The notes under the pieces are model-generated. The model was given only the letters and a program-made list of their open reading frames with translations. It did no database searches and was not told where the DNA came from. A program made the translations under genes and the position numbers. Of a DNA stretch of 64,000 bases, positions 28,141-51,135 are shown in pieces. Every line of letters begins with the position of its first letter. Positions within the stretch are counted from its first letter, which is position 1. Source of the DNA: an uncultured Candidatus Saccharibacteria bacterium (GTDB taxonomy: Bacteria; Patescibacteriota; Minisyncoccia; Phycocordibacterales; UBA918); contig CAYRMI010000005.1 of assembly GCA_964425625.1 (NCBI GenBank), forward strand, positions 79 through 64,078, read 5' to 3'.

Positions 28141-28880
28141 TTTTTGATTGTTACTACATAGTCCATAGTGGGGCCAGATTTTTGATTGAGACAGTCAAGT
28201 ATTAGTCCAAGTACTTGGATAGGGGCAAAAATAAAAAGCGATAGTAATGCTTTTAAAATAGTCGCTCTGAAAGTAATACTTTCAAAAGCCCAGATTACTA
28301 GTAGTTGGGCAAAGGTACCAAAAATACCAGTTGTCTGATTAATGGAAAAATTAGTGAAATTATTTTTTTTATAAAGTCGCTCATGCTCAAAACGAGTGAA
28401 GCGACGAAAATCATAAGGGACTTCATGTTCCGGATACATGAAGGGCATGGAGAAGAAAGCCCGCCCGTTCGGTTTCAAGACCCGGGCACATTCCTTAACT
28501 AATATTTCAGGGTCATCAGCATGCTCCAAAACTTGAGTACAGATAATGGCGTCAAATGATTGGTCGGGGAAGGGGATACTTTTACCGTCATAAAAAGCAT
28601 CGACCGTCTTGGCTTCGTCGGTATGTCCGCCACCGGCTATATCAATGCCAGTATAAGAAGGGGAAGAAAAAAGTTCTCGATAGGGTTTAATACCACAGCC
28701 AACGTCTAAGATTTTTGCCTCTGAGTTTGTTTCTTTAGCAAATTTTTTTATAGCGGTAAAAAGGGTAAAGCGGTTAATAAAATAGGGATTTACCAATACT
28801 GAGTACCACTGTGGTCGGAAGAAATTATCCTCCATAAATTGTTCCTTTAGTTTACTCATGTTTCTTCTTAAAGACAGCAA
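28137..28880 (-). CDS. Class I SAM-dependent methyltransferase with C-terminal hydrophobic segments.
   Basis: ILDVGCGIKPY (motif I). LKPNGRAFFS. Confidence 0.65.
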   Translation of the reverse strand: MLSLRRNMSKLKEQFMEDNFFRPQWYSVLVNPYFINRFTLFTAIKKFAKETNSEAKILDVGCGIKPYRELFSSPSYTGIDIAGGGHTDEAKTVDAFYDGKSIPFPDQSFDAIICTQVLEHADDPEILVKECARVLKPNGRAFFSMPFMYPEHEVPYDFRRFTRFEHERLYKKNNFTNFSINQTTGIFGTFAQLLVIWAFESITFRATILKALLSLFIFAPIQVLGLILDCLNQKSGPTMDYVVTIKK

Positions 28881-29775
28881 CTATTGTATGACCAGGTAAG
28901 GAACTCGCCTTGTTAGCAATGAAGGGTTTGGCAAAAACCTCAAAAATAATCTTATTCAAAATGCGTCCAACAATACCAAGGGGACGAAGTTTGTCACCAA
29001 AGTAAATTTGATAATGCGAACGATAATGATTGGGCTGTAGGTTTTCAGTGTGTACTGTCACGAGCTCAAGTGGAAAGTAATCCGGTAGCTTCGCGAACAC
29101 TTCAGCAGTCCAAAGTCCCATATGGTGTGGTGGCATATTAAGAAAACAGTATTGATCGTCTTTGAGAAAGCCGGCGTTGTTAGGAACACCAAAAATAATA
29201 TAGCCATTATCCTTAGTCGCATTGATAGCATCATTAATGAACCCTTTCACATCGGCAATATGCTCTAGTACCTGAAAAGAACAGCTGACATCGGCTTCTT
29301 TGGTTTGAGTAAAGGAAATACCTTTCATCTCCGCTTCACTGCGAGCTGCTTCATTTAGTTCTGAACCAAAAGCGATAATATTTTTAGTTTCTTTTTCATA
29401 AGTCAGGAAAGCACCGGTAGCACATCCTTGTTCAAAAACAGTATCGCCGGCTTTAATATAAGTATCTGCCACTTCATGCTCCCACTTACGTGTGACGTAG
29501 TAGAGTTCTTCTTTGGATAAGTCCTCATAAAAAAGACCATCCCCAGCCACATTAAGTGGGTAATAGAAACGATAGCCCGTATCATCACAACGGTAAATAG
29601 AAACTGAATCAAGGCCAGTAAAAAAACGTGCAACATCAGTATTGCGCTTGTATAAATCGATAATTCTCTTAGTAGATATACTACTTTCGTAAGTGGATTT
29701 GCCTCCAGTCAGTGGGCTTTTTATTTCCATAATGTGGACATTATAGCACTTAGCTTTAATACGATACGTTTCCAT
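28852..29775 (-). CDS. Class I SAM-dependent methyltransferase.
   Basis: FEQGCATGAFL and FQVLEHI...DNGYIIFGVPN motifs. Confidence 0.55.
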   Translation of the reverse strand: METYRIKAKCYNVHIMEIKSPLTGGKSTYESSISTKRIIDLYKRNTDVARFFTGLDSVSIYRCDDTGYRFYYPLNVAGDGLFYEDLSKEELYYVTRKWEHEVADTYIKAGDTVFEQGCATGAFLTYEKETKNIIAFGSELNEAARSEAEMKGISFTQTKEADVSCSFQVLEHIADVKGFINDAINATKDNGYIIFGVPNNAGFLKDDQYCFLNMPPHHMGLWTAEVFAKLPDYFPLELVTVHTENLQPNHYRSHYQIYFGDKLRPLGIVGRILNKIIFEVFAKPFIANKASSLPGHTIVAVFKKKHE

Positions 29776-30668: not shown

Positions 30669-31442
30669 CTAGGACTTTTTTGTAAAGACAAAGCAACCAC
30701 ATGCCCATTCCTGATTCTCTACTTCTTTCGGATTAGCATTCTCTATCAAACCACGCACTTCATAGTCATCAGGCACCATAGAGAATTCAGTGAGAATCAA
30801 TTCAGGAAATAGATCAAGTACTTGCTTGTACGAGTAAATACGGTGTGCATTAAAGGCTATTTTAGGTTTGCCAACTGGGGTTACAAAAATAAAGGTACCA
30901 CCCGGTGCAAGAACACGAGATAACTCTTTAGCTGCTTCAATGTCACCCTTCGGATTGATTGGATCACCGTAACGTCCTAGTCCAACATGTTCGACAGTAT
31001 GTAGACAAGAGAGGGAGTGAACACTGTTTGTCTCAAAGTGTAGTTTGGTGAGGTCCCCATGTTTTGATATCAGGTTTGGTAAATTGAGGTTTGCAGGTCT
31101 GTAGTCATAAAATTCAACTGGTACAAACGCAGATATTATAGTGCTGAAATGTAGAGTCGAAGCAATGTCGATATGCTTAGCTGGATTAACCCGCGCTACA
31201 ACACGCGCTGCCCAGGCAGGGTGATAGATATAGTGAGGATCGAATTTGGTGGTGGCTGTTTTGTCTAGTAGTAAGGGGAAGAGGTGGCGAAATTTTACCG
31301 TAAAACGTTCATCATTAAGACTCTTAAACTGTATAAGATCTGCAAAAAAGCGCGGCCATGAGATGAGTTTGCGTATAAAGACGTAAATAGGAATGACAAA
31401 GGGTACTTTTAGTAGTTGTTTTTTTAATGGAAAGTTTGGCAT
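30669..31442 (-). CDS. Putative methyltransferase, DUF268-like.
   Basis: LHTVEHVGLGRYGDPINP block. Confidence 0.35.
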   Translation of the reverse strand: MPNFPLKKQLLKVPFVIPIYVFIRKLISWPRFFADLIQFKSLNDERFTVKFRHLFPLLLDKTATTKFDPHYIYHPAWAARVVARVNPAKHIDIASTLHFSTIISAFVPVEFYDYRPANLNLPNLISKHGDLTKLHFETNSVHSLSCLHTVEHVGLGRYGDPINPKGDIEAAKELSRVLAPGGTFIFVTPVGKPKIAFNAHRIYSYKQVLDLFPELILTEFSMVPDDYEVRGLIENANPKEVENQEWACGCFVFTKKS

Positions 31443-31446
31443 ATTA

Positions 31447-32535
31447 TTATTTGATTAGTGAGGGATTTGGTAATTGTTCCAGACGACCAAGTGAGAGTCC
31501 TTCTTGGGGTATTGATTGCTTGTTGCTTAAGCCTTTGTACAAATTGAACCACTCAGCAAAGGTGAGGAGGTGACTATTAGATACCCCACTGTAGTCTTTC
31601 ATTCGATATTCTTTATAGGAGTCGTACTTATACCAGTATAAATCAAGAGTCTCTCGGTCTACAATGCAGAAGTGATCAGCATAAGCCTGCCATGAGTCTT
31701 CGATTGACCAGGAGACACTACGACCGATGCGAGTGAGAAATTCGCTAGCTAGGTAAGATTCTGCTATGCGAGCGTCCATGACGTCTTGTACGGTGAGTAT
31801 GGGTTTTGCTGGGGCACTACGTGTATCATGCGCAGCGCTCCAATACTCTATCATATCGTCGATATGACCAAACTGGAACATATCAGTAACTAGATAAGGT
31901 ACATATTTAAGAGTTAAAAAACTCGAAGCAATAATACGATATTTTTGCTTAAAGCCCGGTGCTACGGGGAAGGCATGAATAAGATTAAGCAGAAATTCGT
32001 TAATATTAACGCCGTACATACGTTGGTCACAACGCGTTTTGTAGACAAACTCCGCTCCGGCTAGCTTGGCAGCCTCAAGGCCACTTAGGGTGGGAACAAG
32101 TTGGAAGTTTATGTTACCAATACCAGCAATAGAAGGTTTCTCGTTTTCGATTACTTTCACTCCTTCAGCTTTGAGTTCAGAAATAATTGTAGGATCGCTA
32201 CCAATGTCGGTTGAAACGATGATGATTGTTGAAGGAAAGTGCTTTTTATAAACCCGGACAGTTTCTATAGTAAAATTTTGTTCAGCAATCAGTCGACCTT
32301 CTAAAACAATTGCTGTTTTAGATGTTGACTTGAGAGGGTCAGACCACGTGTGAATTTTTTGGGCAGACATCGGTCGCGTATGCGTTGTAACAAACTCACG
32401 TTTAGCGGTGGAAACTTTAGCAAAAAACCATTTGATAGTGTTGATACGATAACGGTTGTACACCATCCAGAGTTGGTACCAGAAAGCTTTTCGGTCTTGG
32501 GTATATAAATGGTAGTAAAATTTAATTTTTTTCAT
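31447..32535 (-). CDS. Hypothetical polysaccharide-biosynthesis protein (possibly WavE-like).
   Basis: Operon context only. Weak recollection of a family resemblance. Confidence 0.3.
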   Translation of the reverse strand: MKKIKFYYHLYTQDRKAFWYQLWMVYNRYRINTIKWFFAKVSTAKREFVTTHTRPMSAQKIHTWSDPLKSTSKTAIVLEGRLIAEQNFTIETVRVYKKHFPSTIIIVSTDIGSDPTIISELKAEGVKVIENEKPSIAGIGNINFQLVPTLSGLEAAKLAGAEFVYKTRCDQRMYGVNINEFLLNLIHAFPVAPGFKQKYRIIASSFLTLKYVPYLVTDMFQFGHIDDMIEYWSAAHDTRSAPAKPILTVQDVMDARIAESYLASEFLTRIGRSVSWSIEDSWQAYADHFCIVDRETLDLYWYKYDSYKEYRMKDYSGVSNSHLLTFAEWFNLYKGLSNKQSIPQEGLSLGRLEQLPNPSLIK

Positions 32536-35279: not shown

Positions 35280-36482
35280 TTACTTATTCATGAATAAAAA
35301 ATTTTTTATTCTCACAAGGAGGATTTTAAACCTATTTGCATCAAGCTCCATTTTTCTTGGAATTGGTTTACAGGAACTTTTTTTGATTGCTTCACTTTCA
35401 ATCTGGGACTCCATGGTACCCGCAAGTGCAGTCTCGCATCGAGCTATATTATAGATGATGACTTTAGAGTCTGGGTACTCCTTTGCTATCTCTAGATATA
35501 AAACATGAGCATCTTGGTACTTTTTTTCACGAAACAAGAAGACGGCTTTGATAAACTTATCTTCTGCGCCTTTAGGAACATCAAGATTTCTATTGTATTT
35601 AAGATAACCGTCTTGTACAAGATATTTTTTAAAGTCATGCCTAAATATACCTCGGCCTATTTGCTTATAACTTTCTGAAAAAAAGGCCTTAATATTATTT
35701 TTACCGAGTTTATTTTGAGAAAAAATATCATACTGTATAATATTTTTAATTGAATCTTGGGAGAAGAGACACAAAATCTCTTCAAAAATAAGATAGAAGT
35801 TAATTGAGAATAAACCCTCTTCATATACTCGGTGAAAGTATCCTTTACTAAGGATGGCTTGTCGGTGCAAAAAAATAGTATCGGGACAAACATACACAGT
35901 ATTTCCGGCAGATAGAAATCTTATCTCAAAGCACTGAGTGTCAAATCCATGTTTTTCAGGATACCCTTGAGTTTTATTGTAGGCTTCTTTGGTAAAAAGG
36001 AAATTATCTAGCAGAGCTGAAGTATCATCAAACAGATTTTCAAATGTTATTGGTTCATTAGATATCTTATTATAGTGTGCGCTATAGTGAGTCTGGTCAT
36101 TTTCTTTGAAGTATCTTCTTTCATGTATCGCAACCCCGTCACAATTTTTATGTATCAAGTATTCAATCATTTTCTGCATGGTGTTTGGAAACAGTAAGTT
36201 GTCACTATCTAAGCAAAAAATAAGATCCCCTTGACTATGTTTGATACCACTATTTCTGGTCGCTCCACCACCTTGGTTGTGGGTGTGATAAAAAAGCTTT
36301 ATTTCTGGATGAACGTTACTAAGCTTTTTCATTAGAGCTACAGTTTCGTCTGTTGATTTATCATCAACCATCACTATTTCAAATGGCGTGTTGAGATTTT
36401 GTGCATACACTGAAGCCACGGCTTCTTCTAAAGTTGCTGTACAATTGTAACAAGGGATAATTATTGAGAGTTTATGATTCAT
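35280..36482 (-). CDS. Family 2 glycosyltransferase with a C-terminal extension.
   Basis: LSIIIPCYNC...EIVMVDDKSTDET and CLDSDN. Confidence 0.75.
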   Translation of the reverse strand: MNHKLSIIIPCYNCTATLEEAVASVYAQNLNTPFEIVMVDDKSTDETVALMKKLSNVHPEIKLFYHTHNQGGGATRNSGIKHSQGDLIFCLDSDNLLFPNTMQKMIEYLIHKNCDGVAIHERRYFKENDQTHYSAHYNKISNEPITFENLFDDTSALLDNFLFTKEAYNKTQGYPEKHGFDTQCFEIRFLSAGNTVYVCPDTIFLHRQAILSKGYFHRVYEEGLFSINFYLIFEEILCLFSQDSIKNIIQYDIFSQNKLGKNNIKAFFSESYKQIGRGIFRHDFKKYLVQDGYLKYNRNLDVPKGAEDKFIKAVFLFREKKYQDAHVLYLEIAKEYPDSKVIIYNIARCETALAGTMESQIESEAIKKSSCKPIPRKMELDANRFKILLVRIKNFLFMNK

Positions 36483-37281
36483 TTTTCACACCACTCCTCA
36501 TTTTTGCGTAAACGTCACCAAAATCTGTATCAATAAATGATTGCTTTGTAACCAGTTCCAACATTTCATTGCCGGAAATCCAGTTATTTAAAGTAAGCTG
36601 CATGCTTTCTCCGACAGAGTAATTAAACATGACGTCTTGATTGATTGCGATAATTAGTTTGACACACTTTATGACATTCTCTGTTTGTTCAGGGGTTGCG
36701 TATTCAAATGATATTAAATTAATTGAAGATGTTAATCCTTTTAGCACATTAGGTTCATACCCTTCAACATCTATTTTAATAAATTTAGGAATACCATAAG
36801 TTTTGATTGCATTATCTAGGGTATTTACTTCAACATTTTGAGTCTCACTCCACTCAAAATTTTTAAATCTGGTATCTTTTACAGAATCAATCCATTCAGG
36901 TGAAAGTGAAGATAAGCCAGAAAAGTTTGAAACATATAAATTAGTAGACCCTTCTTTGGCACCTAACGCTTGCGGTACAACAGTTATTTTGTTTCCAAAC
37001 TTCCATTTTAAAATTTTTATACAGGAACCCTGAGGTTCAAAAGCTATTATTTTTGCTCCTAATTGCAATAGAGGGGAAACTCTATTGCCGGTATTTGCTC
37101 CCACATCAAAGCACAGATCTCCTTTATGGATAAATTGTGAATAAAATAAACGCCTCTTTTCATTTTCTTTCATCTCTTCTTTATATGATTCTCCCGGCCA
37201 GATTTTATTCTTGATATCTTTGAGTATATATATGACATCGTCTCCAATTAGGTACTTAATTTTATTTTTAAATGATCTCAT
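36472..37281 (-). CDS. FkbM-family methyltransferase.
   Basis: CFDVGANTGN...IIAFEPQ. Confidence 0.6.
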   Translation of the reverse strand: MRSFKNKIKYLIGDDVIYILKDIKNKIWPGESYKEEMKENEKRRLFYSQFIHKGDLCFDVGANTGNRVSPLLQLGAKIIAFEPQGSCIKILKWKFGNKITVVPQALGAKEGSTNLYVSNFSGLSSLSPEWIDSVKDTRFKNFEWSETQNVEVNTLDNAIKTYGIPKFIKIDVEGYEPNVLKGLTSSINLISFEYATPEQTENVIKCVKLIIAINQDVMFNYSVGESMQLTLNNWISGNEMLELVTKQSFIDTDFGDVYAKMRSGVKNES

Positions 37282-37322: not shown

Positions 37323-38189
37323 CTAGGTAGCAGCGATGAAACATCTACCATCTTTCTCTTCCTTGAGTAGTTCAACTTTGTAGTTAAGTTCATGCAACAC
37401 TTGCCCTACTTTTAGCATATTAAAAATTGAATGGATTTCAATTAAAAGTATGGGCTTATAACGCAGAAGGAATTGCTTTCCACCTTCTAGGGCCAAATAC
37501 TCTGCCCCTTCGATATCGATTTTTATCAAAAAGGGTGGTTCGTTTATGCCTATGTCCTGCAATGAGTCTAGCGAGACCGTTTTTGTCTTTTCTTTTTTGT
37601 AGCCAAGATTCTTTTCATAAGAATCTTTCTCATAAAAAGTATGAGAACTATCTATAAAACTTCCACTTGAGGTGCCGTCGTCAAGGTTATCATTAAAGTT
37701 AAAATCTTCCTCACCTGTTTTGTTTGAGATAGCGGTGTCGTGTATTTCAATAATTTTTTCCATGTCCGTATTTTCTGTCAGAAAATATTCAAATCTTTTC
37801 TTGTTATAAATGTTTGGTTCAAAAGCAATTACTTTACCATTTTTCCCAACAAGTTCAGCAAAACACATAGAACTATAACCAAAATGAGCACCAATGTCGT
37901 AAACTATTTTTCCTTTTAGATCTAACTTCTTTAAGTAGTCTATAAAGAACTCATCATATTCGCCACTGATCATATCTTTCCATACGCCTGTCGAGTAGAC
38001 AAAAATTTTCCTACCTTTGAGGATTCCACCTTGAACAGTATTCCAGGTAGGGGTAAAACGGTCTTTTTTAAGGAAACGATTAGCCCACTTTTGTAGCTTT
38101 GGGTATATAGAACTACTTTTTAAGAAAGAAAACATAAATGGCGGAGTTATTGAATGGATTGTGTTATATAGGCTACCTTTATTTATCAT
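37323..38189 (-). CDS. FkbM-family methyltransferase.
   Basis: VYDIGAHFGYSS...VIAFEPN. Confidence 0.6.
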   Translation of the reverse strand: MINKGSLYNTIHSITPPFMFSFLKSSSIYPKLQKWANRFLKKDRFTPTWNTVQGGILKGRKIFVYSTGVWKDMISGEYDEFFIDYLKKLDLKGKIVYDIGAHFGYSSMCFAELVGKNGKVIAFEPNIYNKKRFEYFLTENTDMEKIIEIHDTAISNKTGEEDFNFNDNLDDGTSSGSFIDSSHTFYEKDSYEKNLGYKKEKTKTVSLDSLQDIGINEPPFLIKIDIEGAEYLALEGGKQFLLRYKPILLIEIHSIFNMLKVGQVLHELNYKVELLKEEKDGRCFIAAT

Positions 38190-38263: not shown

Positions 38264-39415
38264 TTAATGTTTTAAATTTTTTAATCTAAATCTAATGTTT
38301 CTCAAGATAAAAAAGACATAACCCAAATCAATTTTTCTGTTCCCAAGTTTCCAGGGACTTTTGATTATGTCATTATTTTTTTTAGTAAAGGCGATTAAAG
38401 CGTTCCCTGGGATATTTTTGTTGATATCAATTTCTTTTATTCTCTGCTTCCAGAATAGGGGAATATCTTCTAATACGATTTTTAAATCAGTACCATACTT
38501 TTTATCTTCAAAACTATATCTTTTTGCTGCAGGGTTGATATTTGTCCAACCTTCACGATATTCCTTATATCCATAAGCAATTTTGATAGTTTTATCAAAA
38601 AAACCTATTGGTATGAAAAGAGGTGGAACTTGACTTGCCACGATTTCATTTATTCCCCTAATTGTATGTGAATAGCCGTCAAAATGCGCTGCAACCTCTC
38701 GTTTTGGCATCACAATAAGTTGATTGGGGGTGAGGTGGAACTTTCGAACGTCTTCTGATCTATAGATAACGGCATCGCCCATATCTTCCGAATCAAACCA
38801 GTATGTGAAGAGTTTTTTATTTATAATTTGGATACCCGCATTTTCACCGTTCTTTTGTATATAGGAAAGAGTATCTGCATCTTCATCTATAATTGTAGTG
38901 TCTTGACCAAATAATCTCCAGAATGGATTACCGGGCCTGGTTACATTAGTAAATTCACTGAAGTGGGAATATATGATGGAAACGAAATCATTTGTCTCGC
39001 TAAACAATTTTGCTTTAGCGAGAGTGGTGTCAATAATAGATAAATCAGGCGCAATGATGGGATGGTCGTTATTGGGAGCATACCAAATCCAGTCGTCGTC
39101 CCATTCGTTAATAATTGAAAGGGATTTGCGATATTCGGTCTGGTTGGCACTGTTGGGTTGTAGAATGATAGCTTCTGGAAAAAGTGACCTGGCGTACTCT
39201 TCAAACTCGGCTATTCGACTAGTGTCAGCAAGCTTGAAGCGAATTAAGACGTGTGACCAAGGGTAGTTGGCATAGCTGGCAAGTGTGTACTTAGCTATAT
39301 CAATTTTACTTGGCATGGCGTATGAAGGAACGGTTTGACGTATCCATTTGTCACCATCAATAAAAGTCTTATTGAATGGTACATCGGTAATAAAACTGTC
39401 AAAGTACAGAATCAT
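38264..39415 (-). CDS. Hypothetical protein in the glycan operon. Very AT-rich.
   Basis: ORF with a 4-nt overlap with the downstream gene. No recognised motif. Confidence 0.4.
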   Translation of the reverse strand: MILYFDSFITDVPFNKTFIDGDKWIRQTVPSYAMPSKIDIAKYTLASYANYPWSHVLIRFKLADTSRIAEFEEYARSLFPEAIILQPNSANQTEYRKSLSIINEWDDDWIWYAPNNDHPIIAPDLSIIDTTLAKAKLFSETNDFVSIIYSHFSEFTNVTRPGNPFWRLFGQDTTIIDEDADTLSYIQKNGENAGIQIINKKLFTYWFDSEDMGDAVIYRSEDVRKFHLTPNQLIVMPKREVAAHFDGYSHTIRGINEIVASQVPPLFIPIGFFDKTIKIAYGYKEYREGWTNINPAAKRYSFEDKKYGTDLKIVLEDIPLFWKQRIKEIDINKNIPGNALIAFTKKNNDIIKSPWKLGNRKIDLGYVFFILRNIRFRLKNLKH

Positions 39416-40494
39416 AGCTTAGGGTAGTTTGTTTCAAAGTACGCAAGTTCTTCCGGTGTACCGAGCACCCAGTTGTCTTTTACGTTATAAATCTTTATCT
39501 TTTTACCAGACTTTAGTAGTTCGTTGTAACATGGTGCAACGTAGTACTCGCCCTTTGATTTGTCGTTTCTCTCTACCATGTTTTCAACCGCGCAAACGAA
39601 ATCACTGCCACGTCTAAAGTAATACAATCCAGACGACGCATGGTTTGAGATAGCTTCTTTTTCTTTAGTCATATCAACATATCCAAATTCATCAAGACGG
39701 GCATAACTGTATCTGGGGTCTGTGGCATCAAAGCAAGCCAATATACCATCTGGTCTATCGCGCTCAATCATCTCAAGCATCTGTTCATTGCCTGTGGTAT
39801 AGGTATCGCAGTTATAAATAATAAGTTGATTGTAGTTGTTGATTAGTGATGAGGCGGCAAGACATCCCGTCGCCTGGCCTCTAAGTGGTGGCTGTTCAAT
39901 AGCTACCTCAATGTTCTCGCCAAATAATGTCCGCAATTTTGCAGACATTTGGTAGGTCGCTTCGTGCTCAGCTGAGATGACAAATATAAGTTGAACGTTT
40001 GGTTTACCGATTAAGAAATCAAACGACGCTACTGCCCACTCAATGAGTGCTTTGCCACGACTAGTGATGAGTGGTTTGGGGTCGGTAAAACCCGCTTTAG
40101 CGAAACGTGAACCAGCCCCGCCCATCGGAATAAGAATATTAATTTTTGTGTCGTCAAAGTCATTGGGTTGTAAATTATCCCAGCCAGTGAATGTGTGGGC
40201 CAGATCATCGAGATAGACATCAGCGTAAGGCTTTCCAAAGTAAATTTCGTCATATGGAATTTCTTGCAGAGTCAACCAGTCGAGGGTCGTTTTGCCAACT
40301 TTTGCGATAACCTGTCCTTGATTACCACCGCAGGTTTTCATGTGTCGTGCGGTTTGCAGGATGATTGTATGTCCAGCGGCTTTGAGGTCTCGGATTTTCT
40401 CAGCTGCACCGGGGTTCATCCGGACATTCGCATAAGTCTGACCTTCTTTTTTGAGTTCAGTAATGGTTCCGTCTATATCTATAATTATTCTCAT
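39412..40494 (-). CDS. Bifunctional HAD-superfamily phosphatase (N-terminal) / sugar-phosphate nucleotidyltransferase (C-terminal).
   Basis: IIDIDGTI (DxDGT HAD motif I). PMGGAGSRF NTP-transferase G-loop. Confidence 0.6.
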   Translation of the reverse strand: MRIIIDIDGTITELKKEGQTYANVRMNPGAAEKIRDLKAAGHTIILQTARHMKTCGGNQGQVIAKVGKTTLDWLTLQEIPYDEIYFGKPYADVYLDDLAHTFTGWDNLQPNDFDDTKINILIPMGGAGSRFAKAGFTDPKPLITSRGKALIEWAVASFDFLIGKPNVQLIFVISAEHEATYQMSAKLRTLFGENIEVAIEQPPLRGQATGCLAASSLINNYNQLIIYNCDTYTTGNEQMLEMIERDRPDGILACFDATDPRYSYARLDEFGYVDMTKEKEAISNHASSGLYYFRRGSDFVCAVENMVERNDKSKGEYYVAPCYNELLKSGKKIKIYNVKDNWVLGTPEELAYFETNYPKL

Positions 40495-42113
40495 ATATCG
40501 ATTGAATTGAGTAGGGTAATACCAGTAATGAACATTGCTTTCTGTCGTAAAGGTGCGTCGCTGTGAAGGGGAATCATAGAGATGAATAAAAGCGCTTCAA
40601 TTGCCTTTATGACCTGTGGGTCATAACCAGCACCCACAAGTGCGGTATCAAAATACGTGGCGATATTCTCGTGCTCAACTTCATGGAAAGTGTTGTAAAT
40701 AAAACCAGCTTCAGTTTCTTTGACTTCGAAGAGGTCGCTCACAATAAAATCGTAGCGTCCAGAAAAACTATGTCGGAGCTTCGCAATATCGTAATGATGA
40801 TCACCATAGATAGATGGTTCACCAAAGCTTCCGCGTGGGTCAATAAACTTAAAAATCCGACTATGAGGATCAAAGAGAATATTTGCTGGGTGTAGGTCGC
40901 CGTGGAGGAATGTCATCGCGGAGTTTTGATAAAGGTACTGTACAAGAGAAGACAGCTTTTGGGCGTAGGTGGGCCATCCTTGGTAGACCTGACCATTGAT
41001 GGTGATAGTTTGAGACTCGAAGCGTTCCTTCCAGGCCGGGTCTGCCGTTAGAGTTTCAATTCTTTTAAGTGTTTTGATGCGGTATATATCGTCATAGAAG
41101 GCGAAAGGTAATTCGGTAGTGTATTTTGTAAACAGAGCCAGAATCTCAAAGAGACGATCAATAATGAGTTGCCAAACTTTGTCATCAAAGTGGTTGAAAA
41201 TGAAATAGTCAGCCAATGATTGATAACCATAGTACTCGAGTGAGTATGAGGCAGTTTCTTCATTGATAGAATAATCAATCAGACGCGGGGTGAATATCTT
41301 AAGTTCATGAGGGATGTTTTTGTACCAATTAATCTCATTCTCCAGCTTAGATTTTTTATGACTTGATTTAGTAATTGAGCCATAGAGGTCATTGTAGGTG
41401 ACGCTATTAAAGCTACGAATTTTAAGGAAGTCTACCTTGGCGCGATAGTAGTTTTCAATATTGCCACAGTCATACCAGCCTTCAGCTGGGATTAGCTTGA
41501 ACTGCTTTGGGTAAGCATCCAGCGTATGGTGAAGCTCGTGACGGTCGTGTGTTTGGTCGATTAAAGTAGAGGTAGCCTTTAGTGCGGAATTATCAGTAAA
41601 GAAATATATACCTGCGAGGGCTTGGCCGGTCCCGGCGTATTCTTTTGGTTTATTTATGTAACACTGGGTCTTTCCATTGTCCTCAATCAGACACCACTGG
41701 GAAGCATTTTCAAACTCAGCGCTGGTGACCACAAAATCTTCAGTAAAGTCTAATGGGCCACGGTAGACAGTGTCGCCGAGGTAGATCAGTACCTGATCTA
41801 AAGAATCAACCTGATCAAGGGCCTGACTAATAGTATGTCCAAGACCCCGACTTGGGCCGGTATCCCGGATAATATTAATTTTGATTTTTGAGCCGAATTT
41901 CTTCGTTACATATTGTTCAGTGTATTGGTCTTCAGGACTGATTGCGATGATGGTGCGTGTAATACCGCGTGCTAGAAGATCCTCGAGAATATAACCGATT
42001 ACAGGCTTACCATTGATTGGTAACATAGTGTCCGGCAGATTAGTGTGGCGGAGGATTTTATTGGTGGGGCGACCGCCAGCGGGAATTATAGCGGTAATTC
42101 GAGAATTGTTCAT
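40491..42113 (-). CDS. Bifunctional nucleotidyltransferase (N-terminal) / APH-choline-kinase-like small-molecule kinase (C-terminal).
   Basis: AIIPAGGRPTN...LPINGKPVIGY. LHGDLHPANILFD kinase catalytic loop and FIDPRGSFG. Confidence 0.6.
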   Translation of the reverse strand: MNNSRITAIIPAGGRPTNKILRHTNLPDTMLPINGKPVIGYILEDLLARGITRTIIAISPEDQYTEQYVTKKFGSKIKINIIRDTGPSRGLGHTISQALDQVDSLDQVLIYLGDTVYRGPLDFTEDFVVTSAEFENASQWCLIEDNGKTQCYINKPKEYAGTGQALAGIYFFTDNSALKATSTLIDQTHDRHELHHTLDAYPKQFKLIPAEGWYDCGNIENYYRAKVDFLKIRSFNSVTYNDLYGSITKSSHKKSKLENEINWYKNIPHELKIFTPRLIDYSINEETASYSLEYYGYQSLADYFIFNHFDDKVWQLIIDRLFEILALFTKYTTELPFAFYDDIYRIKTLKRIETLTADPAWKERFESQTITINGQVYQGWPTYAQKLSSLVQYLYQNSAMTFLHGDLHPANILFDPHSRIFKFIDPRGSFGEPSIYGDHHYDIAKLRHSFSGRYDFIVSDLFEVKETEAGFIYNTFHEVEHENIATYFDTALVGAGYDPQVIKAIEALLFISMIPLHSDAPLRQKAMFITGITLLNSIDI

Positions 42114-42127
42114 AGACTTATTTTATA

Positions 42128-43459
42128 CTACGTTTTAGTTTTTCCTAGTGTTAAGAAAATTTCTCGTTCAATAAAAATAAAGGTGAAGATTAAGGCTGTA
42201 TAAGAAAGCAGTGTTGCATAGGCCGCTCCATAAATACCATAACTGGGAATAAGTAACCAGTTAAGAGTTATATTCACGATTGCACCTAGCGCGGTCAAAA
42301 AGAGGATTTTTTTGGCTTTATTTTCAGCAATTAGGTAACTCTGAATTAATGTAACTGAGATTGCTCCAACCAGAGACCAGATATAAATTTGTAAGACGGT
42401 ACTTGTTTCACTAAATTGTGTCCCAAAAATCAGGGCAACAATAAACGGAGCTAAGATGAAAATTATACTCGAGATGAGACCAGCTAAGCCGACAGAAAAA
42501 AGTCCCAGTGTCCAGAAGCGCTTAATGTATTCTTGGTGATTATGTGTGCGGGCATTAATAATGGCTGGAAATAGGGAGGCAATAAATACACCGGGAAAGA
42601 ATCCTAAAACCTCAGTTAATCTGACGGCAGCGTCATATATACCAACTGACGCAGAATCAATTATGTGCTGAATCATAACCTGATCAATTCGTCCGTAGAG
42701 GTACCCAGAGAAGCCGGCAAGTAGTAAGGGCCAGGAGTCTAATAGGAGTGATTTTAGAGTTACGTATGAGTACCTCCAAGTGAGGGGGGTGCTTTTAAAG
42801 ACGGATACATATATATAGACATTACAAACTAAATTGATGAGTGCCTCAAGAGCAATAATGGCGGCAAAGTATAAAATACCTCGGTCAAAGAAAATAACCA
42901 AAATTTTTGCTAGGGGAATGATAACAGAAATTAAAATAGTTACGTATGATGTATATTTTGCTGCTACTCTGGCTTGAAAAAGGAGCGAAAGCACACCAAA
43001 AGGCTGTAATATAAAAGTCAGAGCAATAATACCAATAAGCCAACTGAGGATAATATCGTCATTTATATACCAGGCAAAAAAGCACGTAGTTACGAAAGTA
43101 AGAGTGCCGAATAAAAGCTTTGCGGTAAAAGCAGTGCCGAGTATCTCTCGTTCTTTTTCAGGGTGGGCGATTAGATCACGATAGAGGATTTGGTCTATCC
43201 CTAATGAAGCGAAGATAGAGAATATGGCAACGAAACTTTGGGCGTAGCTGAGCTTCCCATAATTTTCTGGTCCTAGGTATCTAGCTACGATGGCAATAGT
43301 AAAAAAAGAAACAACAAAAGATACTACTTTAGCTAAAAATATCCAGCCAGTATTTTTGAAATATTTTTTAAAGCCGGTTTGGTCCCAGTTGCCAATTAAT
43401 TTTTCATAGAGCCAAGTAGGTAAAAGGGACTTAGAAATAAGATTGAGTCGCCGGTACAT
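42128..43459 (-). CDS. Wzx-like oligosaccharide/polysaccharide flippase (MOP superfamily).
   Basis: 443 aa, ~12 TM helices, operon context. Confidence 0.65.
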   Translation of the reverse strand: MYRRLNLISKSLLPTWLYEKLIGNWDQTGFKKYFKNTGWIFLAKVVSFVVSFFTIAIVARYLGPENYGKLSYAQSFVAIFSIFASLGIDQILYRDLIAHPEKEREILGTAFTAKLLFGTLTFVTTCFFAWYINDDIILSWLIGIIALTFILQPFGVLSLLFQARVAAKYTSYVTILISVIIPLAKILVIFFDRGILYFAAIIALEALINLVCNVYIYVSVFKSTPLTWRYSYVTLKSLLLDSWPLLLAGFSGYLYGRIDQVMIQHIIDSASVGIYDAAVRLTEVLGFFPGVFIASLFPAIINARTHNHQEYIKRFWTLGLFSVGLAGLISSIIFILAPFIVALIFGTQFSETSTVLQIYIWSLVGAISVTLIQSYLIAENKAKKILFLTALGAIVNITLNWLLIPSYGIYGAAYATLLSYTALIFTFIFIEREIFLTLGKTKT

Positions 43460-44888: not shown

Positions 44889-45479
44889 ATGGCCACAGAC
44901 AACCTTATTGCCAAGTTATACGAATCTCCTAAAACCATTCTGACCGTCAAGGATATTGCTTTAATTTGGGAGGAGACCAACACGGTAAATTTGCTTTCGA
45001 AGATTAAATATTACGTCAAACAAGGGTCGTTAATACGTCTGACTCGTGGTGTTTTTGCTAAGGATAAAAATTATAATCCTAAAGAATTAGCCACTAGTTT
45101 ATATACGCCATCATACATTAGTTTTGAAACGGTCCTGCGCGAGGCGGGAGTTATTTTTCAGCACCAGGACTCGATTTTTGTAGCTGGTCCTTATGCCATT
45201 ACCAAAAAAGTTGGAACTAAGACAATTACTTTTAGAAAGCTTAAATACAGTGTACTTTACAATGCACTTGGTATTAAGGTTGAAAATAATTACAGCATAG
45301 CCACACCAGAAAGAGCCTTTCTCGATACCCTCTATTTGTCCCCAAAATTTTACTTTGATAATCTACGATCAATAAACTGGGAGCTTTGTCTTGAGTTGGT
45401 AAAGATTTACAATAACAAGCAATTAATCAAGCGACTAAAAAAATATCAGATTAAATCTTTAGAAAAATATGCTCAATAA
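44889..45479 (+). CDS. AbiEi-family antitoxin / transcriptional regulator (type IV TA, abortive infection).
   Basis: ~196 aa. N-terminal wHTH-like region. Overlaps the downstream DUF1814 gene by 11 nt. Confidence 0.6.
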   Translation: MATDNLIAKLYESPKTILTVKDIALIWEETNTVNLLSKIKYYVKQGSLIRLTRGVFAKDKNYNPKELATSLYTPSYISFETVLREAGVIFQHQDSIFVAGPYAITKKVGTKTITFRKLKYSVLYNALGIKVENNYSIATPERAFLDTLYLSPKFYFDNLRSINWELCLELVKIYNNKQLIKRLKKYQIKSLEKYAQ

Positions 45480-46182
45480 AGAAAAACACCAGCTGATTAT
45501 GGGGCAGATTCTCCGGGATATCTACTCGGATACTTCTATCTCATCCCTCATGGGATTTAAGGGTGGTACCTGCGCCTACTTCTTCTACGGTTTAACTCGA
45601 TTCTCTGTCGACTTAGACTTTGACCTTTTTTCGACAGATGAATTCACGCAGAAATTAGTATACGAGAAAATCCAAAGTATGTTAGGGAAATATGGAGAGG
45701 TTAAAGATAATTATATAAAGCGAAATACTATTTTCTTTCTGCTCTCCTATGGTAATGCTGATCACAACGTGAAAATCGAAGTGAATGTAAGAATTCTAAT
45801 AGCAGATATTAAAGGGCACTATGAGATGAGGGAATACCTAGGAATTTCTATGCTGGCTGGTAAAAAAGATTATCTTTTTGCTAGTAAGCTCGCAGCTTTG
45901 ACCACCAGAAGTGAAACAGCCATGCGTGATATTTATGATATTTGGTTTTTTGGTACAAATCATTGGGATATAAATACCGAAGTAATTCAGGTTAGAACTG
46001 GTAAAACCATTAAAGAATACCTGAATGACTGCATTCTAGTGGTGGAAAAGGTTAAAGACAATGAAATCTTGCGCGGGCTAGCTGAGTTGTTGCCCGGTGA
46101 AAAAGAAAAAGTATGGGTTAAAGAATACTTACGGAAAGAGGTTATCTTCCTGCTCAAAAATTATCAATCAGTATTAAAATAA
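45469..46182 (+). CDS. AbiEii/AbiGii-family nucleotidyltransferase toxin (DUF1814).
   Basis: GFKGGTCAYFFYGLTRFSVDLDFD motif (GG...R.S.DLD). Confidence 0.7.
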   Translation: MLNKEKHQLIMGQILRDIYSDTSISSLMGFKGGTCAYFFYGLTRFSVDLDFDLFSTDEFTQKLVYEKIQSMLGKYGEVKDNYIKRNTIFFLLSYGNADHNVKIEVNVRILIADIKGHYEMREYLGISMLAGKKDYLFASKLAALTTRSETAMRDIYDIWFFGTNHWDINTEVIQVRTGKTIKEYLNDCILVVEKVKDNEILRGLAELLPGEKEKVWVKEYLRKEVIFLLKNYQSVLK

Positions 46183-46250: not shown

Positions 46251-47177
46251 TTATAGTTGGCTTTTGTACCACTCATAGGTCCTTGCGATACCTTCCTTAA
46301 GTCCGATTTGGTGATGGAAGCCAAGCGCGTGGAGTCTTGAGATATCGAGGAGTTTGCGGGGAGTGCCGTCCGGCTTTGTGGTGTCCCACTCTATCGTGCC
46401 AGGGTAGCCGACTACTTCTTTGATGGTCTCTGCTAGTTCTTTGATGGTGCAGTCTTCTCCAGTGCCGATGTTTACTATCTCGGCTTCATTATATGTATTC
46501 ATGAGATGAAGGCAGGCTCCGGCTAAGTCATCGACATGGAGAAATTCGCGCATCGGGGAGCCAGAGCCCCAGAGGGTGACGTTCGGAGCCTGCGATAGTT
46601 TGGCTTCATGAAAACGGCGGATGAGCGCCGGTAGGACGTGCGAGGTCTCTAGGTCGAAGTTGTCATTTTCGCCGTAAAGATTGGTCGGCATGACACTGAT
46701 GAAATTGCTACCGTATTGGCGACGATAACTTTGACACATAATGATGCCAGCAATCTTGGCTATAGCGTAGGCGTCGTTGGTGGGCTCTAAGGGGCCGGTC
46801 AGTAGGTATTCTTCTTTGATGGGTTGGGGAGCGAGCTTGGGGTAGATGCAGGAGCTACCGAGGAAGAGGAGTTTTTCTACGCCACTATGGTGAGCGGCAT
46901 CGATCATGTTGCTTTGTACCAGGAGATTTTCGCGGATGAAGTCAGCGGGGTAGGTCTGGTTGGCCATGATGCCGCCCACCTTGGCCGCTGCCAGGAAAAC
47001 GTAATCGGGTTTTTCGGTCGCAAAAAATTCTTGCACGGCCTTGGTATCGAGTAGGTCTAGCTCGGCCCTCGTGCGGGTGACTAAGTTGGTGTGGCCGGCT
47101 TCTTTGAGCGCTCGGAAAATCGCTGAGCCGACCAAGCCACGGTGTCCGGCTACATATATTTTTGCTGTTTTTTCCAT
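46251..47177 (-). CDS. fcl: GDP-L-fucose synthase (GDP-4-keto-6-deoxymannose 3,5-epimerase/4-reductase).
   Basis: [20 protein letters not shown] and ~308 aa. GC-rich. Confidence 0.85.
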
Positions 47178-47233: not shown

Positions 47234-48439
47234 CTACTTGGTACTGGCCGGAATAGTACAGTGGGGGAGGGTGTTGTTGGGGGTGATGGTGTGCGTGGTA
47301 GCTTCAGGGTAGAGTTTGCGGAAGGTAGTGAAAGTGGCATCCGGCTTGCCGTACTTTACCTCATAAGCATCAATTATATGGCCGTGGGTGCGCACAAAAT
47401 CTATTTCTAGTTTAGTCGAAGTACGCCAGAAATAGGTCCTAGGAGGAAGTGATTCTAGTGTGTCAATTTTAAGAAATTCGGTATAGATGAGGGACTCAAA
47501 GTTTTTTCCCAGTGCGCTATGGTTGTTGCTCTCGGGAATGGCGGTCAGGGCGTTCATAACGCCATTATCAAGGAAGTAGATTTTGTAGGCTTTCTTTAAT
47601 TCCTTGGTGTAATTTCTGGCAAACGAATATACGCGTTTGATTACAAACGCTTGTTCAAGTAGACGAATATAGTTCTCTACGGTCGCTGGCGAAACTCCAA
47701 TGGCTTTGGCTAGGCTACTGGTATTGACCGTGCTTCCGACTCTGGTGGCAAGATGGGTCACTAGGTCTTCAAAGTTTTTGGGGTTACGTAGTGCCTCAAA
47801 AGTGAATACGTCCTTGTAGAGATAGTTGGTGGCAATTCTTTTGATTTCAGCTTCTTTTTCTTCTGGTGTACTCACCGCCACCACTGCCGGATAAGTACCA
47901 AAGCGAAGAAGATTGGTAAATAATTCTGGGGTAAGAGTAAGAGTGTCAGAAATTTCAGCCAGAGAGAGCGGGTAGAGCATAAACTCATCGGCTCGCCCAG
48001 TGAGAGGTTCTCTAATTTCGTTAGCCAAGTCAAAAGAGCTGGAGCCGGTGGCGATAATTTTAATTTCCGGGTAGGTATCATGAAAGAGTTTAAGTATCTT
48101 GCCGATGTTGGAGATGGTTTGAGCTTCATCGAAAGCGACGAGGGTTCGTTCTCCGATGAGGTTTTTTAGGGGCTTGGTATCTCCCAGTTTGAAGGCTCGG
48201 CGCACATCATTTTGCTCACAGTTAAAATATGCATCAGTGTGTCCGAGGTCCTTTAGCAGGGTTTTGACGAGAGTAGTTTTACCAGCTTGGCGGGGGCCAA
48301 GAATTACAATCAAACCTTGATGGTTGATCCGTTTTAGAATTTGCTCCGCTATTCTACGTTTAAAAATAAGCATATAATTGCATTTCTGATAATTTGTAAG
48401 TATATATAGTAAATTATCACAAAATCTGACAATTTGCAA
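47234..48439 (-). CDS. AAA-family ATPase with a DUF4143 C-terminal domain (COG1373-like). The true start is probably at 48373.
   Basis: Walker A LGPRQAGKTTL. Walker B VAFDEAQ. Confidence 0.65.
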   Translation of the reverse strand: MQIVRFCDNLLYILTNYQKCNYMLIFKRRIAEQILKRINHQGLIVILGPRQAGKTTLVKTLLKDLGHTDAYFNCEQNDVRRAFKLGDTKPLKNLIGERTLVAFDEAQTISNIGKILKLFHDTYPEIKIIATGSSSFDLANEIREPLTGRADEFMLYPLSLAEISDTLTLTPELFTNLLRFGTYPAVVAVSTPEEKEAEIKRIATNYLYKDVFTFEALRNPKNFEDLVTHLATRVGSTVNTSSLAKAIGVSPATVENYIRLLEQAFVIKRVYSFARNYTKELKKAYKIYFLDNGVMNALTAIPESNNHSALGKNFESLIYTEFLKIDTLESLPPRTYFWRTSTKLEIDFVRTHGHIIDAYEVKYGKPDATFTTFRKLYPEATTHTITPNNTLPHCTIPASTK

Positions 48440-50076: not shown

Positions 50077-51135
50077 CTAAAAGTAAAAATGACCGTGGTT
50101 TTTTTGCATCAGCTCATAGTCGGCCTTAGTCATGAGCTTGGCGAGGTCGGCAAATTTTATCTTAGCTTCCCAGCCGAGTTTGGCTTTGGCTGTGGCGGGG
50201 TTACCAAGGAGTAAGTCGACTTCGGTGGGGCGGAAATATTGCGGGTTGATTTTGATAATTGTCTTACCGGTTGCTTGGTCAATCCCAACTTCATCTACAC
50301 CTTGGCCTTGCCACTCTAGTTTGATACTGAGCTCCTCGCAAGCGGCTTCGATAAATTCGCGCACACTATGAGTCTCACCGGTGGCGATGACAAAGTCTTC
50401 TGGAGTGTCTTGTTGGAGCATGAGCCACATTGCCTCGACGTATTCTTTGGCGTAGCCCCAGTCGCGCTTAGCGTCGAGGTTGCCGAGCTCCAGATGGTTT
50501 TGTAGGCCTAGTTTAATTTTGGATAGACCGATGGTGATTTTGCGGGTGACGAAGTTGTAGCCACGTCGTTCACTTTCGTGATTGAAGAGTATGCCATTAC
50601 AAGCAAACATATCGTAAGCCTCGCGATAGTTTTTGATAATCCAAAAACTGTAGAGCTTGGCTACACCATAGGGGCTACGAGGATAGAAGGGGGTAGTCTC
50701 GCTTTGCGGTGTTTCTTGTACTAAGCCGTAGAGTTCGGAAGTGGAGGCTTGGTAGAATTTTGTCTTATGACCGAGGCCTTGTTTGCGAATGGCTTCGAGG
50801 ATAGTCAGGGTACCGAGGGCATCAGTCTGCGCGGTTAGTTCTGGTAGATCAAAAGAAATACGCACGTGACTCTGGGCGGCGAGGTTGTAGACTTCGTCGG
50901 GTTCGATTTCACGCAGAAGAGTAGAGATATTGGTAGTATCGGTTAGGTCACCGTGATGCAGAAAGAGGGTTTTATTATGAATCTCGGGATTATTGAAAAG
51001 GTGTTCGATGCGAGCGGTGCGGATAGAGCTAGAAGGGCGCACGATGCCGTGTACCTCGTAACCCTTCTCTAGGAGTAATTCGGCTAAGTATGATCCGTCT
51101 TGACCGGTGATGCCGGTGATTAAGGCTTTTTTCAT
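50077..51135 (-). CDS. gmd: GDP-mannose 4,6-dehydratase.
   Basis: [30 protein letters not shown] and [12 protein letters not shown]. Confidence 0.9.

Follow-up and report, generated by a model that had tools for sequence, protein, structure and literature searches.

Two coupled genes of an uncultured Saccharibacteria bacterium as a probable cassette for one nucleotide-activated sugar

A stretch of 64,000 nucleotides from an uncultured Candidatus Saccharibacteria bacterium (contig CAYRMI010000005.1; the window, in what follows) carries two adjacent genes on its minus strand, here called gene A and gene B, in an operon that begins with a gene for a Wzx-type flippase. Gene A (40491..42113, minus strand, 540 amino acids (aa)) joins a domain of the NTP-transferase fold, NT-A, to a kinase-like domain of the APH type, and gene B (39412..40494, minus strand, 360 aa) joins a HAD phosphatase to a second NTP-transferase domain, NT-B. 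The domains, the state of their catalytic motifs, and the order of the genes are those of a cassette that recurs in many genomes, with homology to AfhE and AfhF of phages, to KfoI, KfoE, and KfoH of E. coli K4, and to VC0232 to VC0230 of Vibrio cholerae. The two genes are probably one copy of this four-domain cassette, making a single nucleotide-activated sugar for a glycan that is exported by Wzx. In this cassette NT-B would be the working nucleotidyltransferase (NTase), and the order of the steps, like this assignment, is deduced by analogy with the relatives.

Domains and Catalytic Motifs

Both open reading frames (ORFs) lie where the original prediction, made from the letters of the window, had placed them, as the ORF table and its translations confirm. 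The motifs that it quoted are present, FLHGDLHPANILFD in gene A and IIIDIDGTI and LIPMGGAGSRF in gene B, and so is the ATGA at 40491..40494 (minus strand), read directly from the sequence, in which the stop codon of gene A overlaps the start codon of gene B. Searches with domain hidden Markov models also return all four of the domains that had been named. In gene A, which is a homologue of phage AfhE, E. coli K4 KfoE, and V. cholerae VC0231, NT-A (41418..42113, minus strand, about residues 1-232) scores 41.5 bits on PF00483 over residues 26-229, with a cut-off of 21.2, and the APH/protein-kinase-like domain (40494..41408, minus strand, about residues 236-540), for which the activity of an anomeric kinase on a sugar phosphate is predicted, scores 29.1 bits on PF01636 over residues 251-447, with a cut-off of 23.2. 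In gene B, NT-B (39439..40143, minus strand, about residues 118-352), a canonical sugar-phosphate nucleotidyltransferase domain of the 4EVW / VC0230 / KfoH family, scores 30.4 bits on PF00483 over residues 124-342 (cut-off 21.2). The HAD domain (40180..40494, minus strand, about residues 1-105) is small and lacks a cap, and belongs to the family of 1XPJ, AfhF (9IQW), BcbF, and KfoI. The first 100 residues or so of gene B match TIGR01689, the 'capsule biosynthesis phosphatase' (EcbF-BcbF), at 6.8e-19 with 68.1 bits, which is below the cut-off of 162, and the domain is therefore a relative of that narrow subfamily rather than a member of it.

When gene B is compared with the PDB by sequence, its halves find different entries: the HAD half matches 1XPJ (1.3e-13) and 9IQW (1e-4), and the NT-B half matches 4EVW (4.9e-23), where 1XPJ and 4EVW are both structural-genomics entries from V. 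cholerae. An AlphaFold2 (AF2) model of gene A has a predicted local distance difference test score (pLDDT) of 90.3, and a Foldseek search with it against BFVD gives full-length matches to viral two-domain proteins, with RB69 ORF052c at 1.5e-13 and ORF053c at 1.3e-8. By Foldseek, NT-A resembles RmlA, GalU, and HddC at 1e-11. The kinase domain alone (profile A4) finds only marginal APH and Pim-1 matches in the PDB, with E of at least 0.04, and no close solved kinase.

The catalytic residues were followed in two alignments, A1 with gene A and 24 homologues at 35-77% identity, and A3 with gene B and 23 homologues. The kinase-like region, which the original prediction allowed might prove degenerate, keeps its catalytic residues, from the beta3 Lys and the alphaC Glu to the HGD...N loop and the Mg-binding Asp: K249, E260, H404, D406, N411, and D425 are invariant in A1, and G405 is nearly so, being present in at least 90% of the sequences. 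The HAD domain, for which a loss of the second Asp and Lys motifs had been considered, keeps motifs I-IV in A3, with D6, D8, K88, D96, and D97 invariant and position 48 always T or S. In NT-B, R130 and K140 (GGAGSRF...PKPL), D230, and E278 are invariant, and K279 occurs in at least 90% of the sequences. Three members of A1 (P0082, P0085, and P0088) show Trp in place of an otherwise invariant Gly at many positions (for example AAWIPNN, RWYFW), which is consistent with lineages that read UGA as Gly (code 25) and were translated with another table at source.

A further reading of the domains is that the genes activate a phospho-head group, such as phosphocholine, ethanolamine phosphate, or a polyol phosphate, in the way of LicA and LicC. 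An N-terminal LicC-like and a C-terminal choline-kinase-like fold do resemble the LicCA fusions, one JGI homologue carries the label 'choline kinase', and LicC itself (1JYK) is found in the PDB as a weak, generic match at 2.8e-4. Membership in the LicA/LicC system was nevertheless rejected, and such an activity is extremely unlikely: PF01633 has no match, neither LicB nor LicD is found in Pfam and NCBIfam scans of the ORFs of the locus, a HAD phosphatase has no role in that pathway, and the real homologues, AfhE, KfoE, and VC0231, are all tied to sugars.

Phage Relatives and the Nucleotide Loop of NT-A

AfhE and AfhF are the only biochemically characterised relatives of the two genes. According to PMC13326640, phages RB69, DLP3, and HY126 make UDP-D-arabinofuranose for hypermodification of their DNA by means of an arabinose-5-phosphate isomerase, AfhE, and AfhF. 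In that account, AfhE has an N-terminal NTase domain, the UDP-Ara pyrophosphorylase, and a C-terminal arabinose-5-phosphate 1-kinase domain that turns Araf-5-phosphate into Araf-1,5-bisphosphate, and AfhF is a 1XPJ-like, Mg-dependent HAD phosphatase that turns Araf-1,5-bisphosphate into Araf-1-phosphate (PMC13326640). The same paper gives E. coli phage HY126 as the origin of AfhE and AfhF, and gp52:53/gp51 of RB69 and gp82/gp81 of DLP3 as their equivalents (PMC13326640, citing He et al.).

A tblastn search of phage genomes with gene A returns 269 records. Over the whole of its length, gene A matches gp047 of Enterococcus phage 9183 at 28% identity (1e-51), and the Enterococcus phage matches adjoin a HAD gene that is 45-47% identical to the HAD domain of gene B. 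The AfhE-like genes of T-even phages in the JS98/RB69 group are matched at 3e-6, and the AfhF-like phosphatase of JS98, gp041, matches 9IQW at 5.3e-54 with an identity of about 70% by eye.

Where an NTase is expected to have GxGTRL...PK, NT-A of the window has AGGRPTNK...LPDTM, while LGDT (D114), NKP (K155), and WYDCGN (D215) are retained. Among cellular homologues the canonical GxGTR...PK loop occurs in the NT-A domain of 0 of 81. In the NT-B domains of the cellular set the PK is present in all 73, and the strict GxGxR pattern in 55 of the 73. Consider now the phages 9183, JS98, LC53, XG4, DLP6, and S-SRM01, whose systems have no second NTase. In each of these six the NT-A loop is canonical (G-x-[GA]-x-R-[LMF]...[PS]-K). 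Phage phiRSL1, in which ORF236 has a degenerate NT-A loop and a kinase, has a separate NT-B-like protein encoded by the adjoining ORF235, and phage S-SKS1 has a kinase without any NT-A and with an adjoining NT-B. The median conservation in bits per residue is lowest for NT-A (0.36) and rises through NT-B (0.59) and the kinase (0.76) to the HAD domain (1.15), and all two-NTase systems cluster together in a rough neighbour-joining tree of kinase domains, drawn without support values.

On the simplest reading of these patterns, nucleotidyl transfer passed to NT-B, and NT-A lost this activity. NT-A would then be a relic of an ancestral single-NTase enzyme, such as phage AfhE, and would be kept for a role that is altered or not catalytic. 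The cassette would show how a domain decays in nature once another has replaced its function, with the loop preserved only when there is no second NTase.

The original prediction had taken the presence of two NTases to mean that two donors are activated, such as an NDP-sugar together with a CDP-alcohol or a phospho-head group. In favour of two active enzymes are the two domains that score on PF00483, the conservation of the two-NTase layout in most loci, and the state of NT-A, in which ten residues are invariant and the ligands for metal and phosphate (D114, K155, and D215) survive in most homologues. Against them, the loop Arg and Lys are missing from NT-A in 81 of 81 cellular homologues and are kept where NT-A is the sole NTase, the equivalent of K155 is gone in VC0231, the S-SKS1 system does without NT-A altogether, and there is a single kinase, a single phosphatase, and no conserved second substrate-forming enzyme nearby. 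Since the loop is lost wherever NT-B is present, the inference from two NTases to two donors fails, and a two-donor cassette is very unlikely.

The two unusual phages deserve a description of their own. In the Synechococcus phage S-SKS1 (L004:3604-7142), NT-B is fused to a RibB-like 3,4-dihydroxy-2-butanone-4-phosphate synthase domain and is followed by the stand-alone kinase, a HAD protein mis-annotated as 'phosphoheptose isomerase', and a transaldolase. This set may be a variant pathway that builds an unusual sugar from pentose-phosphate intermediates. Neither a RibB-like domain nor a transaldolase was found when they were sought near the cellular cassettes. In the Ralstonia jumbo phage phiRSL1 (L090:4464-6622), the cellular-type ORF236 and ORF235 stand among glycosyltransferases of the glucosyl-hydroxymethylcytosine type and a thymidylate-synthase homologue, an arrangement that suggests glycosylation of DNA or surface with the same sugar.

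Distribution and Layout of the Cassette

A scan with a degenerate pattern, over one genome per GTDB species, finds a relative in at least 577 species. They span bacteria of the candidate phyla radiation (CPR), Bacteroidota, Verrucomicrobiota, Chloroflexota, Planctomycetota, Proteobacteria, and DPANN and Asgard archaea, and the nearest relatives of the window cassette are in Paceibacteria. The layout was counted in the best 80 loci, in which ORFs were called and then searched by phmmer with the window's four domains up to 3.5 kb from the gene A homologue. In 63 of the 80 loci both HAD and NT-B are near the gene A homologue, fused as in the window in 10 and encoded by separate genes in 53. Ten loci have NT-B only, four have HAD only, with contigs that end soon after, and three have neither, two of these at contig ends. 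Most of the incomplete loci are thus found where a contig ends. NT-A/kinase, HAD, NT-B is the order in most of the 80, and a 4-nt overlap between neighbouring genes is seen also in L002, L005, L007, L015, and others. L002, which holds a relative at 65% identity, shares a wider synteny with the window.

It follows from the joint occurrence of HAD and NT-B in 63 of 80 loci that two NTases are the conserved state of the cassette, and that only the fusion of HAD to NT-B is lineage-specific. The compression of four domains into two polypeptides, which had been singled out, is thus true of the window but a trait of its lineage, with HAD and NT-B separate in 53 of the 63 complete loci. The two-NTase layout itself is the conserved ancestral state of the cassette and no special feature of this locus.

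The gene that comes after the cassette varies by lineage: it may encode a GT2 protein of about 346 aa, a WavE protein, a 383-aa orphan, or KfoD. A WavE gene follows directly in V. cholerae, in Aeromonas, and in several CPR loci. As for isomerases, a phmmer search with a single phage isomerase finds no arabinose-5-phosphate isomerase homologue within 8-10 kb in the 80 loci, and family scans of the ORFs of the window locus find none either. No SIS isomerase was found at the loci, in line with the absence of a GmhA-like isomerase that had been remarked upon earlier.

Two loci stand apart by their layout. The gene A homologue in KSB1 (L079:4271-6763) encodes 830 aa, with a C-terminal extension, and in an Anaerolineae locus (L050) the gene A homologue has neither HAD nor NT-B within 10 kb.

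Relatives in V. cholerae, E. coli K4, and P. multocida

In V. cholerae the cassette lies in the wav cluster for the core of the lipopolysaccharide (LPS), where the genes encode, in order, WaaA, a HAD protein of 126 aa, a 527-aa protein, an NTase of the 4EVW type, and WavE. The same string of genes occurs in Aeromonas veronii. The 527-aa protein is 26% identical to gene A over residues 26-534 (6e-42), and it is VC0231, since a published quantitative PCR primer for VC0231 (PMC10458087) matches its gene exactly. VC0229 and VC0231 are involved in the adsorption of phage VP3 (PMC10458087), the receptor of which is listed in a review as the LPS core oligosaccharide together with TolC (PMC13609209).

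When the V. cholerae segment is used as a DNA query, matches are found in 124 of 5,426 complete E. coli genomes. The E. coli locus is a kps group-2 capsule cluster that runs through galE/kfoA, a 686-aa GT2, an insertion sequence element, a 477-aa ORF, a HAD protein (126 aa), and a 522-aa ORF, and continues with a 241-aa 'GT2', a nucleotide-sugar dehydrogenase, and another GT2. The 686-aa GT2 gene we take to be kfoC. The homology arms published for the ΔkfoE deletion of K4 (supplement of PMC7925653) match perfectly and flank exactly the 522-aa ORF, from which it follows that KfoE is the gene A homologue. Gene A matches KfoE at 1e-40, the HAD domain matches KfoI at 35% identity (2e-16), and NT-B matches KfoH at 30% identity (8e-22). 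Deletion of kfoE leads to non-fructosylated chondroitin (PMC7925653, PMC3673904). In Pasteurella multocida, BcbF, after which TIGR01689 is named, is grouped with BcbE and BcbG in the addition of a fructose side chain, and bcbE and bcbG mutants lose fructose (PMC13552107).

In the K4-type kps locus of E. coli E597 (L093:11884-14545), KfoE is seen to consist of an NTase-like and an APH-kinase domain, and to lie between the HAD protein and a canonical NTase. The annotation pipeline PGAP names this NTase, and the VC0230 homologues, 'glycosyltransferase family 2 protein'. This name, like that of 'fructosyltransferase' for KfoE, looks wrong.

Another explanation for NT-A is that it has been re-purposed as a different catalytic domain on a GT-A-like fold, for instance as a furanosyl transferase, so that KfoE would be a fructosyltransferase literally and the cassette would be self-sufficient. 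NT-A has been conserved in spite of losing the loop for the nucleotide, the NTase and GT-A folds are related, as the name that PGAP gives to the NT-B homologues also recalls, and the gene downstream that might encode a transferase differs between lineages, as set out above. A fructosyltransferase activity is ascribed to KfoE in PMC7925653 and PMC8858990. The acceptors, however, are wholly different, being chondroitin in K4, the core in V. cholerae, and the glycans of CPR bacteria, while the invariants of NT-A are common to all; NT-A is the least conserved domain (0.36 bits per residue); the cassette is followed in nearly every case by a GT-like gene of its own; and the phenotype of the kfoE deletion is explained equally well by loss of the donor. 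A re-purposed NT-A, for example as the transferase, is therefore unlikely.

A Proposed Pathway

Suppose that the cassette has one working NTase, NT-B. The APH-like domain of gene A would then phosphorylate a furanose sugar at its anomeric hydroxyl, the sugar coming straight from central metabolism with a primary phosphate already in place. Its substrate would most likely be D-fructose-6-phosphate, giving fructose-2,6-bisphosphate, with D-arabinose-5-phosphate or another pentose-5-phosphate as alternatives. The HAD domain of gene B would remove the distal phosphate, at C6 or C5, after which NT-B would join the sugar-2(1)-phosphate to a nucleoside monophosphate (NMP) to give a nucleoside diphosphate (NDP)-furanose. 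A neighbouring transferase, for which the product of a 383-aa ORF and a WavE-like protein are candidates, would finally add the sugar to the glycan.

Fructofuranose may well be the sugar, at a little short of an even chance, in view of genetic or contextual links to glycans that carry it: the K4 and P. multocida B/E polysaccharides and, presumably, the V. cholerae core. That it is arabinofuranose is unlikely, and that it is a sugar other than these two is a possibility to be taken seriously, if below an even one. D-Fructofuranose-6-phosphate (D-arabino-hexulose-6-phosphate) and D-arabinofuranose-5-phosphate have the same ring stereochemistry, and it is therefore plausible that one kinase family covers both substrates. 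A CPR-like genome would be expected to make no 3-deoxy-D-manno-oct-2-ulosonic acid (Kdo), and hence to have no ready source of arabinose-5-phosphate. The isomerase, for which phmmer with the phage query gave no homologue near the 80 cellular cassettes and which the arabinose loci of the phages do possess, also bears on the identity of the sugar. The literature searched, with incomplete coverage of subscription papers, holds nothing on an NDP-fructose or fructose-2-phosphate donor or on the biochemistry of the cellular cassette, and no relevant paper in it was found for UDP-arabinofuranose in bacteria or as a primary source on AfhE and AfhF.

We tentatively propose that the cassette supplies a route, lacking until now, by which a ketofuranose is activated with a nucleotide, and in which fructose-6-phosphate would be phosphorylated at C2 to fructose-2,6-bisphosphate by the APH kinase, dephosphorylated at C6 by the HAD domain, and converted to NDP-beta-D-fructofuranose by NT-B.

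The steps could also run in the order known from MupP, AmgK, and MurU, so that HAD frees the sugar from its 6(5)-phosphate, the APH kinase makes the sugar-1-phosphate, and the NTase activates it, as in salvage. The same three classes of enzyme occur there, AmgK is likewise an anomeric kinase of the APH fold, NT-B has a weak match to the MurU model (NF045761, 20 bits), and the NT-A domains of phages resemble MurU by Foldseek (PMC13326640). However, the score of 20 bits compares with a cut-off of 250, for which membership in the MupP/AmgK/MurU system was rejected, the HAD domain is of the small 1XPJ/9IQW type and MupP of a capped subfamily, and, in PMC13326640, the only characterised relatives are a kinase that acts on a sugar phosphate and a HAD that acts on the bisphosphate. 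A salvage order is thus improbable to a high degree.

Several observations weigh against a single fructofuranose donor made by NT-B. Function is here transferred over identities of 20-30%, and the relatives that have been characterised come from phages only. The HAD domain reaches 68 of the 162 bits that TIGR01689 asks for. In 6 of the 10 loci with NT-B only, the contig extends at least 9 kb past the gene and yet there is no HAD nearby. The fructose of the V. cholerae core is, as said, a presumption. In alignment A1 the residues M30, P32, N34, P37, D114, T115, W140, C141, Y170, and D215 of NT-A are invariant, which means that NT-A is still under selection and may have a catalytic role, either kept or newly acquired. 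Finally, KfoE is called a fructosyltransferase in PMC8858990, which cites Liu et al. 2014.

Should the proposed pathway be true, the cassette would be a direct candidate for the synthesis of a bacterial fructofuranose donor. It would provide the long-unidentified fructose donor for the capsules of E. coli K4, P. multocida B/E, and H. influenzae e and for the V. cholerae core, and the same donor would serve the glycans of uncultured lineages in their hundreds, among them CPR bacteria and DPANN and Asgard archaea. KfoE would be a kinase with a pseudo-nucleotidyltransferase domain, and not a fructosyltransferase. One mechanism would join kfoE, which is routinely deleted to obtain chondroitin, the structures 1XPJ and 4EVW, the phage-receptor locus VC0229-VC0232, and at least 577 species. 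For the window it would mean one special sugar, not two, on the glycan of a CPR-like organism.

The Surrounding Locus

The gene for the wzx-type flippase (42128..43459, minus strand; PF01943 at 1.8e-31, PF13440 at 5.4e-21) is the first of the operon and lies on the 5' side of gene A in the direction of transcription, with a gap of 14 nt. The two genes of the cassette had been placed upstream of the flippase; the order is the reverse, with wzx upstream and both genes downstream in a minus-strand operon. Gene B is joined by a second ATGA overlap to the 383-aa orphan ORF (38264..39415, minus strand), after which come two FkbM methyltransferases and then a GT2, as identified by Pfam and NCBIfam scans. 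The WavE-family protein is encoded at 31447..32535 (minus strand; PF07507 at 5.5e-9).

The 383-aa ORF has a family of 7 members, which agree at 72 positions, and in 6 other loci it is found beside the cassette. Pfam, NCBIfam, and the PDB give no match to it, even when the 7-member profile is used, and its single-sequence AF2 model, with a pLDDT of 33, is too poor for use. By its position it is a candidate for the transferase, a novel glycosyltransferase, that would use the NDP-sugar.

The density of methyltransferases in the locus is unusually high. Proteins of the FkbM family are encoded at 37323-38189, 36472-37281, and 26036-26950, a DUF268 protein at 30669-31442, and class-I methyltransferases at 28852-29775 and 28137-28880. 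There is also a GT11 fucosyltransferase (25173-26039), with the GDP-fucose genes fcl at 46251-47177 and gmd at 50077-51135. Together, these genes suggest a heavily O-methylated glycan with deoxy-sugars. An AbiEi/AbiEii toxin-antitoxin pair (44889-46182) and a DUF4143/AAA_14 ATPase (47234-48439) lie within the glycan locus and divide the wzx operon and a DUF218 gene from fcl and gmd; they look like a mobile or defence insertion into the polysaccharide cluster. On the plus strand, 53439-55694 encodes a protein of 751 aa with an IctB/O-antigen-ligase-like membrane domain and C-terminal tetratricopeptide (TPR) repeats, possibly a glycan ligase or polymerase in an organism that probably lacks LPS.

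At the beginning of the window, positions 1-1194 cover the last 1.2 kb, at the 3' end, of a 16S rRNA gene, which has only 70-75% identity to the 16S of any phylum (plasmid collection). A tRNA-Ile(GAT) gene follows at 2414-2488, 1.2 kb past the 16S gene, and no 23S gene comes after it. The divergence of the 16S gene and the lack of a 23S gene in this place suggest that the genome is deep-branching and CPR/Patescibacteria-like, and that its rRNA genes are unlinked.

Comparison with Known Systems

The original prediction had compared the architecture with that of NDP-heptose synthesis or of LicA/LicC. The logic of kinase, phosphatase, and NTase holds, in the form in which it is found in AfhE and AfhF, but the genes are members of neither the HddA/GmhB/HddC nor the LicA/LicC system. 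The likeness to the NDP-heptose pathway consists of an anomeric kinase that acts on a sugar with a distal phosphate, a HAD phosphatase, and a nucleotidyl transfer in the end, and HddC (6JQ8, 1e-5) is among the best PDB matches to NT-A. HddA is a GHMP kinase, and membership was rejected on the APH type of the window kinase, on a score of 23.7 bits against 44.6 for TIGR01662, and on one of 38 against 300 for the HddC model NF049965. Unlike in the pathway to GDP-D-glycero-D-manno-heptose, no GmhA/SIS isomerase was found. With MupP, AmgK, and MurU the cassette shares a HAD phosphatase, an anomeric sugar kinase of the APH fold, and a minimal NTase. The MupP/AmgK/MurU pathway has a different order of steps, and its MupP is of a different, capped HAD subfamily.

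The cellular relatives are closer. VC0232 (1XPJ family), VC0231, and VC0230 (4EVW) of V. cholerae are the same cassette, and crystal structures are available for relatives of both domains of gene B. WavE (VC0229) follows directly after the cassette in V. cholerae, and the window locus also has a WavE-like gene. The V. cholerae genes differ in that they are separate, in that they serve the LPS core rather than a Wzx-exported glycan, and in that their only known phenotype is the adsorption of phage VP3 (PMC10458087). In K4, kfoI(orf3), kfoE, and kfoH have the same cassette domains in a locus for a cell-surface polysaccharide, with a degenerate NT-A loop (MLLIMSGSYVQQELGAEFGSIPPSFLPL) and a canonical NT-B (IIIPMAGMSSRFFKAGYSKPK). 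They differ from the window genes in being three separate genes with HAD first, in the order HAD, NT-A/kinase with the degenerate loop, NT-B, in belonging to a capsule exported by an ABC transporter (kps) rather than by Wzx, and in an identity of 29-35%. The function of the K4 cassette is established by genetics only, by the absence of fructose in the ΔkfoE mutant (PMC7925653).

AfhE, like gene A, has an N-terminal NTase fold and a C-terminal APH-like kinase on one polypeptide, AfhF is of the same small 1XPJ/9IQW family as the HAD domain of gene B, and in both systems the genes are adjacent and coupled. The logic of kinase, phosphatase, and NTase is shared as well, and the homology is seen in sequence and structure, at an identity of only about 20-28%. 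The phage AfhE proteins, however, have the canonical GxGTR...PK loop and no second NTase, whereas gene A of the window has lost the loop and a second, canonical NTase is fused to HAD in gene B. The phage loci carry an arabinose-5-phosphate isomerase, of which the searches of the 80 related cellular loci and the window scans gave no homologue. The product of AfhE and AfhF decorates DNA, while the setting in the window is that of a Wzx-dependent surface glycan. As NT-A fails the test for the pyrophosphorylase loop of AfhE, the cassette is not a plain member of the AfhE/AfhF system. With four adjacent domains, a degenerate loop in NT-A, and a canonical NT-B, it fits the cassette of KfoI-KfoE-KfoH and VC0232-VC0230, and by analogy it would work like AfhE and AfhF and yet belong with the K4 and V. 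cholerae set.

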